The notes under the pieces were generated by a model. It was not told the DNA's origin. It worked only from the letters and a program-made list of their open reading frames with translations, and did not search any database. From Octopus vulgaris (Eukaryota): a DNA stretch of 64,000 bases. This document shows, one piece after another, positions 14,129-27,143 of this stretch. The stretch covers positions 26,722,001-26,786,000 of the forward strand of contig OX597824.1 of assembly GCA_951406725.2 (NCBI GenBank), read 5' to 3'. Positions within the stretch are counted from its first letter, which is position 1. Each line of letters begins with the position of its first letter. Both the position numbers and the translations under genes were made by a program.

Positions 14129-14780
14129 TAGCATGCAGGACAAAATGCTTAGCGACATTTCGCCGTCTTTACGTTCTGTGTTCAAGTTCCTCTCAGGTTG
14201 ACTTTGCCTTTCATCCGTTCGGGTTCGATAAAATAATTACAAGTTGAACATTGGAGCCCAGGTAATCGGTTTATCCCTTCTCTGAAGCTGATGTCTTTAT
14301 GCCACAATTTGAAACCATTATTATTAATACTTTGAAGGCGGTGAGCTGGTAGAATGTTTTGCACGCCAGGCGAAACGCTTATCGGTATTTCGTCTGCCGT
14401 TACGTTCTGAGTTCAAATTCCGCCGAGGTCGACTTTGCCTTTCATCCTTTCGGAGTCGATAAAATTAAGTACCAGTTACGCACTGGGGTCGATATAATCG
14501 ACTTAATCCGTTTGTCTATCCTTGTTTGTCCCCTCTGTGTTTAGCCCCTTGTGGGTAGTAAAGAAATAGGTATTTCGTCTGCCGTTGCGTTCTGAGTTCA
14601 AATTCCGCCGTGGTCCACTTTGCTTTTCATCCTTTCGGGGTCAATAAATTAAGTACCAGTTACGTACTGGGTTCGATATAATCGACTTAATCCGTTTGTC
14701 AGTCCTTGTTTGTCCCCTCTGTGTTTTAACCCCTTGTGGGTAGTAAAGAAATAGGTATTTTGTCTGCCTTTACGTTCTGA
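13702..14780 (+). mobile_element. Cluster of SINE A copies including a trimer at 14336-14780
   Basis: Repeated ttacgttctgagttcaaattccgccgaggtcgactttgcctttcatcc, with aagaaatag-gtatttcgtctg-type junctions at about 14570 and 14755. Confidence 0.9.
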
Positions 14781-23970: not shown

Positions 23971-25237
23971 TGTATGTATGTATGTATGTATGTATGTATG
24001 TATGTGTGTATGTGTGTATGTATGTATGTGTGTATGTATGTATGTGTGTATGTATGTATGTATATGTGCATGGTTGTATAATGTATGAAAGCATGTATGT
24101 TTGAATGAATGTATGTTTGCATTTATGTATGTTTGAATCTATCAATCTGTCTGTCTGTCAGTTTTCTGTGTGTGTGTGTGTGTGTGTGAAGGCATGTGTA
24201 TATGTGAGTGTATGTCTGTCTGTTTCTAGATCTGTTGTTCATAATTGAGTCAAACGAAGACAATAAAAAAAAAAATAAATAAATGAATAAATAAATAAAA
24301 ACATACATACAAATTGATAAAGAGAGGAAAATTGGAATAGAAACACGAGACCGAAAGCGAAAGGTATTTTTTTAAAAAAATCTCCATCAGTTGAACACAA
24401 AAAATACAAAAAAAAACAACAAAAAAAAAACAAACAGTTGAACGAAAATTACAAGTAACCAAACACATTGTGCATGAGAAAACAAACAAAAGAAAAAAAA
24501 CAAAAAAAAAACAAACAAAAACAAACAAACAAACAAATAACGCAAAACGAAGTGAATAAAAAAAAAGACAATGTGTATAACAAATAAATGTAATAATGAA
24601 ATATAATAAAAAGTATAATAAAAATTAAGTGACGATAAAGAAAATTTAAATAATTGCTTTAGTAATATCATTTTTCTGGGTGCAATCTTTAGAAATTGGG
24701 TAATTTAAAAATTAATTAGATTGCTATGGTTCACGTGATTTTCGCCCCCCTTTTAAGATGTCAAAAGATTTAATTTCAAGTCACAATTAATGTTTGAGCC
24801 TGTGAGCTACCATTACAATCGTATAGAATCCAACGTTGGTTAGAGTCGTGAGTGAGGGTGGGATTCCGGGTAAGAGCCATACCCAGCAAAATTCACAATG
24901 ATAGTAATGATTTCTTCTCCCTTTTCACCTTCTTTTCATTTCGCTAATGAAATATGCCTTACAATGTCAAGCTAACCTGTTGAAAAAAAAAACAAAAACA
25001 AAAACAAAAAAAACGAGAACAACAACAACAACAATAACAGCAACAATAATAATGGTTTCAAAATTCTGAATAGATCTAGCAGATTTGAGAAGAGTGGCTA
25101 AGTCGATTTCTTCGGTTCCGGTCTTCAATTGGTATTTATCTTATCGCCTCCGAAAGGACGAAAGGCAAAGTCGACCCCGGCGGCGTTTGACCTAAAACGA
25201 AATGCCGCTAAGCATTTTGCCCGGCTAACAATTCTAA

Positions 25238-26840
25238 TCTTCTATATTACCCACTACGGGGCGAACATATAAAGGACAATCCACAATATGCGGGGACATA
25301 CAAACAGAGGGAACAAAAATTAGAACCAATGTATGAAAAAAAAAATGACATGAAAAGTAAAATGAAAAATGGAATGAAGCCATTCTGCCCCACTTCATAG
25401 CAGTTTCATTTAAACCTTTTAAACTTCGTTCCCGCTAGAATATCGATTCCGGATTCTCCCACCAATTTCACCTCCCAACTCCCATATCCGCTTTTAAATC
25501 TTGTTATTTTTTTCTTTGTGTTCATCTGAGTACAACGCGCAACAGTGCCATCCCTTTATGTTGTCAAAACTCGTTCCAACTGTTTTAAAGTCTTCCCAAG
25601 ATAACACTTCTTTACACAGTGTTTCATTTGAGTCATCATACATTACTTGGGTAGAGTCTGGGTGTTGGGTAGAGTCTGACAGTTGGGTAGAGTCTGGAAG
25701 TTCTTGTCTGTTTGTACATTTTATGTGTCAGAGAGGGATGGACAGGTTTGGTGTCTGTAGGGGGAGGGTGGGTTGAAGAGGGTGTGGTTGGGGTTTGGAT
25801 GGTTATAAGGCTTAATTTTTTCTTTTTCTCTTGTTCCTTTTTCCTATTGTTTCCCATTCATTGTCTATTTCTATCTTCTCTACTTCTGTTGATAGTTTGT
25901 ATTCTTTCTTATTTTCTTGCTCTTTTGTGGGGGGATGAGGGGATCTTTCTCTTGTATCTCCTCCGTCTTTCTGGTCAGTGAAGGGCAGTCCACTCTAATG
26001 TGGCCCTTCAGGCCACATTTAAAGCATCGAAGGATTCTACCCTCCACCCTGATCCTCATTATAGCGTCGACCATAATTATTGTTTCTGTAATGTTTTCTA
26101 GGGTTTCGGTTCAATCTTGAAAAATCATGTCCAGTATCTGTCCCTTCCATATAGCACATAGCATTTTTGTAGCCTGGAGAACCGCTATGTTGTCCTCACT
26201 CCCCAGAAGGACAGCGGCTGCTATCCAGGCCACATCTATCTCTGGCGGATTTCCCTCCACCTTAACTCTGGTCGCACGTTGTCCACGGTAAGTGGGCAAA
26301 AGCACAACTTCTTTACTCTTAATGGTAGTCGCTGCGTGTTTTTTTGCTGTTGCCGCGTCCTTGAATCTTACCTCCACTACTCCGAACTTAGCACCTCTCG
26401 CAAGGTACTCAATTTCATGCCATATCGGTCCCAACGCCTTCTCCACCTGATCCGTGGTCACGACGTCAATCCTTCCTTCAATTATTGAAAACGTCTTGAA
26501 CAAATTTGTTCTTTCTTTGATATTATTAAAGGTCTCTTGCAGGGTGGGGTGGGGGGCAATTTAACGTCACATCCATCGAGACTTAATAAACGTTTGTAAT
26601 TTTCAAATTCACCAATATTAATATCATTTCCCTGGCACTTTGTCACGTCCACAAAGTTTCTCTTTTCTCCATTTAATTTTTCGTCCATTCTCTTGACCGT
26701 TTTCAAAAGCTTCTTCCTCTAAAGATGACATATCTGAATAGCTGAAGTCTTCTTCAGACATCTTTTTCACTAAGTCGACCTTCCTCTATGAGAAGCACAA
26801 ACAAAATTGCTGCAAAGCAGCACAGTAGCAACTAATGAAG
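25238..26840 (-). mobile_element. ORF1-only LINE derivative (Tx1/L1-like gag-type ORF1 with CCHC knuckle), about 1.6 kb
   Basis: Short 5' leader, a broken ORF from ATG 26761 to TGA 25406, and about 170 nt of 3' UTR. No endonuclease or RT sequence is visible. Confidence 0.7.
25406..26761 (-). pseudogene. Disrupted ORF1 nucleic-acid-binding protein with zinc knuckle
   Basis: MSEEDFSYSD..., an RRM-like stretch FGVVEVRFKDAATAKK...RVKVEGNPPEI, an in-frame TGA at 26113-26111, then IRVEGRILRCFKCGLKGHIRVDCP (CX2CX4HX4C). Several frameshifts; an 18-bp repeat x3 at about 25647-25697. Confidence 0.75.
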
Positions 26841-27143
26841 TGGTACTTATTTAATCGACCCCGAAAGGATGAAAGGCAGTTTGAAGTCAAAACGTAGCGG
26901 CAGACGAAATACCTATTTCTTTACTACCCACAAGGGACTAAACACAGAGAGGACAAACAAGGAGAGACATACGGATTAAGTCGATTATATCGACCCCAGT
27001 GTGTAACTGGTACTTAATTTATCGACCCCGAAAGGATGAAAGGCAAAGTCGACCTCGGCGGAATTTGAACTCAGAACGTAGCGGCAGACGAAATACGACT
27101 ACGCATTTCGCCCGGCGTGCTAACGTTTCTGCCAGCTCGCCGC
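26841..27143 (-). mobile_element. SINE A dimer with the second body truncated at the ORF1 element
   Basis: Full head + body + tail 2, then gtatttcgtctg...aagtacca joined to the 5' end of the ORF1 element. Confidence 0.9.

Follow-up and report, generated by a model that had tools for sequence, protein, structure and literature searches.

HAL1 (half-L1), HeT-A and Ag-Sponge are non-autonomous LINE derivatives that keep only ORF1, as does the octopus family described here (excerpts of PMC5786205 and PMC5753468). They are reported from the L1, Jockey and CR1 clades, and neither a Tx1 member nor an element inserting at a single SINE base is named in the excerpts of these two papers. LINEs that target a mobile element include Tx1-Mar, found with SINEU in Mariner-N4_AMi, and the Xenopus Tx1 in Tx1D; as at the present locus, passengers share the target, two sites are used, and copies stack in tandem between target duplications (excerpts of PMC4494074). 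In those excerpts the targets are DNA transposons, the passengers are non-coding and most families are looser, whereas here a SINE head receives passengers that code for ORF1 (PMC4494074). Dictyostelium TRE5-A.2 is also without ORF2, is mobilised in trans and has a Pol III unit as its target, but its insertion ~50 nt upstream of tRNA genes is position-specific, while the octopus family is sequence-specific inside a SINE (excerpts of PMC5633606). For SART1Bm and R1Bm, a short target-like RNA was proposed to ensure accurate priming by annealing with the nicked strand, which resembles the idea of a tag considered below; these are sense sequences at or near the RNA end, and the available parts of that paper describe no antisense tag that folds onto the junction (PMC7265360).

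The excerpts searched (PMC4494074, PMC5753468, PMC5786205, PMC5633606, PMC7265360, PMC4758252, PMC11194090) describe no insertion into a SINE head, no ORF1-only family of the Tx1 type and no tag of this kind, and PMC13282606 does not contain the terms target, nested or ORF1; the families could already be listed in Repbase or Dfam. A site-specific ORF1-only family is a variation on known kinds. The names HAL-A, HAL-B, HAL-C, alpha, beta, SINE B, site 12 and site 46 were coined in this analysis, and SINE sites are numbered along the SINE A copy at 27141-26914.

Anatomy and relatives of the window element

The original prediction described a 1.6-kb unit with a leader, a disrupted gag-like ORF with a CCHC knuckle, a 3' UTR and no ORF2, and all of these were found on the - strand of the window (the whole 64-kb stretch analysed). 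The DNA search and alignment with other copies delimit an ORF1-only non-LTR element, the window copy of HAL-A, at 25236-26840. It consists of a leader remnant (26762-26840, aligned to the leaders of other copies), one broken ORF (25406-26761, start codon inferred) and a 170-nt 3' UTR, and ~90 bp of the 5' leader present in other copies are missing. No ORF2-like match was detected anywhere within the 64-kb window, in the element or in its surroundings. The ORF1 is 42% identical to that of an open 391-aa relative, L024, across residues 7-391 and has 8 stops in that frame. Based on the fold of L024, it is predicted to encode tandem RRMs, a CCHC knuckle, a low-complexity linker and a small C-terminal domain. 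Residues 10-200 of L024 are modelled with high confidence and match structures of tandem RRMs (best E 2e-4); a CCHC follows the RRM region. The CCHC knuckle of the window ORF1 (codons at 25985-26026, - strand) was identified by Pfam zf-CCHC with an E value of 4.4e-5. The C-terminal region was modelled with moderate confidence (pLDDT ~57-74), and a structure search gave no separate fold match for it.

Related copies were sought in the 2.80-Gb assembly. Scoring of the best 40 of 518 DNA-search candidates and the best 40 of 116 3'-end-search candidates (14 of these with matches of at least 77%) gave at least 19 HAL-A loci, which are ~86% identical in pairs (73 pairs). Five loci span the whole query in one piece, and full copies of ~1.65-1.7 kb contain a single ORF1 (two predicted RRMs and the CCHC) and the longer leader. 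HAL-A is a multi-copy family that has kept ORF1 and lacks ORF2, and it carries the hallmarks of retrotransposition, namely target duplication, 5' truncation and a fixed 3' end. The proposed ORF1-only family was borne out by this search, in which the ORF2-less anatomy recurred at independent loci; the alternative that all other copies contain ORF2, the window copy being a one-off deletion, fails because no HAL-A locus has room for ORF2. In the leader of L006, a 33-bp stretch of HAL-A leader is tandemly amplified.

Relatives with an intact frame also exist, L069, L070 and L077 among them. The L024 ORF1 had 33,400 first-look candidates in the genome, and the 20 loci fetched for a long open ORF1 comprise some two-ORF LINEs and others that are ORF1-only, with open frames of 340-510 aa and often in tandem. 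In L075 and L077, ORF1-only elements with frames open over 400-510 aa are arrayed head to tail, and one array ends in an autonomous LINE. The HAL ORF1 is homologous to the ORF1 of autonomous LINEs. In a tree of 61 ORF1 cores (alignment anchored on L024, one row dropped for short cover), 44 rows labelled ORF1-only stand apart from all 13 LINE rows with a support of 98; four other ORF1-only rows cluster among the LINEs, and two of these are plain ORF2 deletions of LINE alpha-1. HAL-A is not HAL1 proper, which is derived from mammalian L1, but an independent analogue with its own octopus ORF1 group of the RRM + CCHC type. The dN/dS ratio was 0.72 within HAL-A, 0.20-0.35 against three sister groups and 0.11-0.27 among young intact ORF1-only elements, all rough values because dS is near saturation. 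Read as such, dN/dS of 0.1-0.35 indicates past purifying selection on ORF1 as it diverged between families. Two sister families have their own targets. HAL-B flanks in L018 lead into a DDE_Tnp_1_7 transposase, and the HAL-B copies L018, L020, L022 and L023 have a common target in the repeat leading into this piggyBac-like gene. The HAL-C target is the 3' end of another repeat, and the empty target was seen in three loci.

The insertion site in the SINE A head

Sixteen of the 17 HAL-A loci with a readable end share a single insertion base in the SINE A head (GGC^AGAAWCGTTAGCACG), and two further loci were unreadable. By eye, the 5' end directly follows AGAAWCGTTAGCACG in 10 of 10 readable copies, which is where the fuller leaders begin, and the 3' end adjoins AGAAWCGTTAGC in 12 of 13. 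Both junctions are at the site in six copies, with a target duplication of ~15 bp. The exceptions are L006, with a degenerate 3' end, and L026, located at another target. An insertion would by chance fall within 2 nt of such a site with a probability of ~0.0023, as estimated from the SINE-rich window, in which there are 60 site-like 13-mers. SINE A had been proposed as a preferred target, with random flanks as the alternative; the specificity is stronger than proposed, and the single base common to nearly all readable loci disposes of random flanks. Between the two halves of a copy the variable A/T base of the site matches in all six cases (T in 4, A in 2), and it differs among copies, indicating independent target duplications. 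A reading of the flanks as terminal repeats or as parts of a composite element was ruled out, the flanks being the two halves of one SINE head.

In L003, L013 and L017 the tail of another element lies directly upstream at the same site, and five separate ORF1 lineages have inserted at site 12 (HAL-A, L312, L313, L350/351 and L302/303). The 5' junction pattern had 92 matches in the genome search. Nearly all of the 50 that were read are deleted SINEs or microsatellite breaks, and none is a LINE start; one more HAL-A leader among the matches (L432) was not counted as independent. ARAGORN found 0 tRNA genes in the SINE A head, and Rfam gave no meaningful match. SINE A has A/B-box-like motifs and may be a tRNA-derived SINE of the octopus OR1/OR2/OK families.

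At the window copy, the SINE A head remnant AGAATTGTTAGCCGGGC (25235-25219) is found directly past the 3' terminus; the right half of the target site starts at 25235, and SINE A from position 12 on occupies 25096-25235 (- strand). On the other side the element is preceded by the SINE A sequence AAGTACCA. A SINE A piece with an internal deletion, beginning at SINE position 46, occupies 26841-26912 (- strand) in place of the lost leader and the left target half, and a complete tail-2 SINE A at 26914-27141 (- strand) is joined downstream at the second site (position 46). Both neighbours claimed in the original prediction, the head remnant and a SINE A body cut at aagtacca, are present, but the aagtacca cut does not mark the target. 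The SINE junction upstream of the element arose secondarily, the deleted SINE piece having come in by a later lesion or a template jump. Among four sequencing runs, contigs near-identical to the window locus occurred in runs labelled as two organisms, and no empty allele was distinguishable from SINE noise.

SINE tails, the 3'-UTR tag and related LINEs

A terminal hairpin (25249-25262, - strand) is common to SINE tail 2 and LINE tails, according to tail comparison and RNAalifold. The alignment of the element terminus with SINE tail 2 that had been reported is real, with 44 of the last 63 nt identical to the neighbouring SINE tail, but it is no better than those with LINE tails (37-46/63, reaching 46/63 for two of them and 44/63 for a LINE with other targets). 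Since this likeness is common to many LINEs, it names no partner and marks the LINE clan. The tail-2 SINEs of the window use the second site, ~34 nt deeper in the SINE, and chain there at 14543, 22491, 22681, 43559, 54090 and other positions. In loci that had not been selected by target, a strict pattern placed 21 of 37 SINE tails at site 46 and 0 at site 12; a looser count, biased by HAL-A neighbours, gave 17/38 and 5/38, respectively. Exact site-12 junction patterns had 24 and 108 matches (0 in reversed controls), and two further tail pattern searches had 2 and 1. Full SINE tails are carried by 91 of the 94 site-12 junctions read, so that the HAL-A site is shared by one SINE subtype but not by the tail-2 copies in the window. 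Tails of the GGGTAGT subtype are associated with site 46 and those of the GGGCAAT subtype with site 12; a GGT start is also frequent among non-SINE targets. The three-part system originally envisaged, comprising an autonomous LINE, an ORF1-only passenger and the tail-2 SINE, retains its ORF1-only family, its SINE A target and its L1/Tx1-like LINEs; the generic tail and the location of the tail-2 SINEs at a second site weaken it as a system served by one enzyme.

The 3' UTR of the window element contains a tag (25315-25327, - strand) complementary to a stretch that combines the end of the element with the target's first bases (AGAA). In HAL-A the tag, GTTCTAATTTT, is located ~75 nt before the element end and is complementary to the junction; the HAL-C tag GTCCTA complements TAGGAC. 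In a test of 26 hand-chosen tails (L233, L234, L242, L243, L246, L254, L256 and L257 were left out), A tags fit A junctions better in 10/11 and C tags fit C junctions in 8/8, and with six target groups 2 of 720 group permutations match the tag-junction fit. For 52 tails taken by rule the tag score was 5.30 vs 4.72 (0 of 5000); 27 tails with other targets showed no tag excess (4.26 vs 4.29). L313, L350 and L351 use site 12 but have no tag or a weak one. Pairing of the tag extends to the terminal bases of the element itself, which favours fold-back of the RNA over pairing with DNA. When folded singly, 5 of 6 tails formed a closed stem spanning the junction, and RNAalifold on the 26 tails gave the terminal hairpin only, with no compensatory pair and no long tag-junction stem. 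The tag signal is real in some lineages, tracking the target in two families, and is not required; its function is putative.

The autonomous relatives fit the Tx1 architecture: they have two ORFs, and ORF2 contains an APE endonuclease, an RT of the L1 group and a C-terminal zinc domain (zf-RVT), with human L1 ORF2p as the closest solved structure. They insert sequence-specifically into repeats such as the SINE B head, (TC)n, (ATT)n and other repeated flanks. An ORF2 protein search returned no named Tx1 reference (its second match was from Argonauta hians), and the label Tx1-like is provisional, drawing on architecture and target specificity. The autonomous LINE that had been predicted is partly recovered, in that L1/Tx1-like LINEs with a homologous ORF1 and the same kind of tail exist, but none with a long ORF2 was found at site 12. 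There were 0 in ~150 ends read overall, made up of 70 zf-RVT ends (70 of 150 listed places; 25,801 first-look candidates), 30 alpha ends that overlap in part with the zf-RVT loci, and 70 beta ends, and none among the 94 junctions selected for site 12.

The closest LINE, alpha-1, has a tail similar to that of HAL-A and a tag that matches AGAAACG. It is loose in its target: 6 of 11 readable copies begin AGAAA, some possibly by tail stutter, and both sides fit only in L217. At site 12 there are two internally deleted alpha-1 derivatives and one truncated 5' end, while the full-length L304 is located elsewhere. The two derivatives, L302 and L303, have an identical ORF2 deletion and represent the recent birth of a half-LINE. 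Alpha-1 is a candidate partner only. The beta LINE inserts strictly in the SINE B head (30/30 young copies; 27/40 older copies by script and several more by eye), and ORF1-only passengers occupy the same SINE B head site. This family (L362-L431) includes many intact ORF2s of 1140-1150 aa; another LINE with an intact ORF2 is L305. Its 3'-UTR tag and target shift together in older copies, and it has ~25 nt in common with SINE A tail 2. Further LINE families have (TC)n, (ATT)n or a long repeated flank as fixed targets (L061-L066; L276, L281, L290; L260, L261, L266, L270). In L284 (G000:C18:49051070-49052350), a LINE 3' end is joined directly to the start of a sequence that we take to be U1 snRNA-like; L274 has the same tail with a few matching bases. 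Beside a truncated element in L348 (2560-3897) there is an intronless 446-aa ORF that appears G-protein-coupled-receptor-like (DRY motif, by eye).

Proposed insertion mechanism and alternatives

The reading we prefer, with a probability of about 0.72, is that the window element is a dead copy of an ORF1-only family located at one SINE A head base with a ~15-bp duplication, likely through target-primed reverse transcription (TPRT) by the ORF2 protein of an L1/Tx1-type LINE acting in trans. The element itself would supply the ORF1 protein, the LINE enzyme would recognise the tail hairpin, and the endonuclease of the partner most likely picks the site, as in the sister LINE with a second SINE as its target. 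A probable aid is the read-through of a few target bases (AGAA), which would fold back on the 3'-UTR tag and pair with the nicked primer. Insertion rebuilds the site, and SINEs and other ORF1-only elements consequently stack there. The partner enzyme likely comes from a full-length relative, none of which was seen at the site among the ends read. This absence of a long-ORF2 LINE at site 12, the looseness of alpha-1, the off-target L026 and the gaps in the tag among three site users were weighed against this reading.

It is possible, though improbable, that the RNA of the passenger picks the site: a loose LINE of the alpha-1 type would nick widely, read-through bases held by the tag would pair with the primer, and families would inherit the site of their master copy. 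No autonomous copy found for site 12 is as strict as the passengers, and tag and junction shift together in families A and C and in the single copies L053, L253 and L029a. The same co-change is apparent by eye in alpha-1 vs alpha-2 LINE tails and in the beta LINE (52 A/GTA, 2 T/GAA), and the stems closed across the junction in single-sequence folds point the same way. However, the comparison windows were chosen after the pattern had been seen, the three single-copy groups were picked for fit, and copies within one family are not independent. The tails with other targets and the three site users lacking a clear tag also speak against a choice by RNA, four paired bases are too few to account for so strict a site, and the identity of the A/T base is set by the local target, which argues that the read-through is not copied. 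We are doubtful of a long-lived ORF1-only clan whose tag would fold on the read-through, change with the target and reprogram a borrowed LINE enzyme to single bases of SINE heads and other repeats.

Both SINE sites are in or beside motifs that we take to be A-box-like, and this location, together with the purifying selection on ORF1, would suit a tethering of the particle by ORF1 protein to RNA polymerase III factors on SINE promoters, which would explain why ORF1 is retained. Such a tether has been proposed for Dictyostelium TRE5-A (excerpts of PMC5633606), but for HAL-A it is very unlikely: near relatives from its own ORF1 group have other targets (the 3' end of a different repeat and a flank resembling a transposon), unrelated ORF1 lineages occur at the same site, and single-base precision is not expected from it. 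The density of SINEs in the window and the existence of simple ORF2 deletions (L302, L303) could suggest that the SINE pieces belong to one composite element copied as a unit, or that a LINE suffered a one-off deletion near SINEs by chance. This is hardly credible and is refuted by the junction table, as the ORF2-less anatomy recurs at independent loci, the flanking SINE halves vary among loci while the duplicated halves agree within each locus, and the C-terminal ORF1 region and the UTR are common features of the family.

Read as trans-mobilised passengers, HAL-A elements extend the ORF1-only kind to the Tx1-like, site-specific LINE clan and add SINE heads to the list of LINE targets. With many sister families, different targets and intact ORF1s and ORF2s in one genome, the retention of ORF1 and the choice of site by endonuclease or by RNA become testable. 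If the tag does steer insertion, it would have a bearing on programmable insertion by TPRT.
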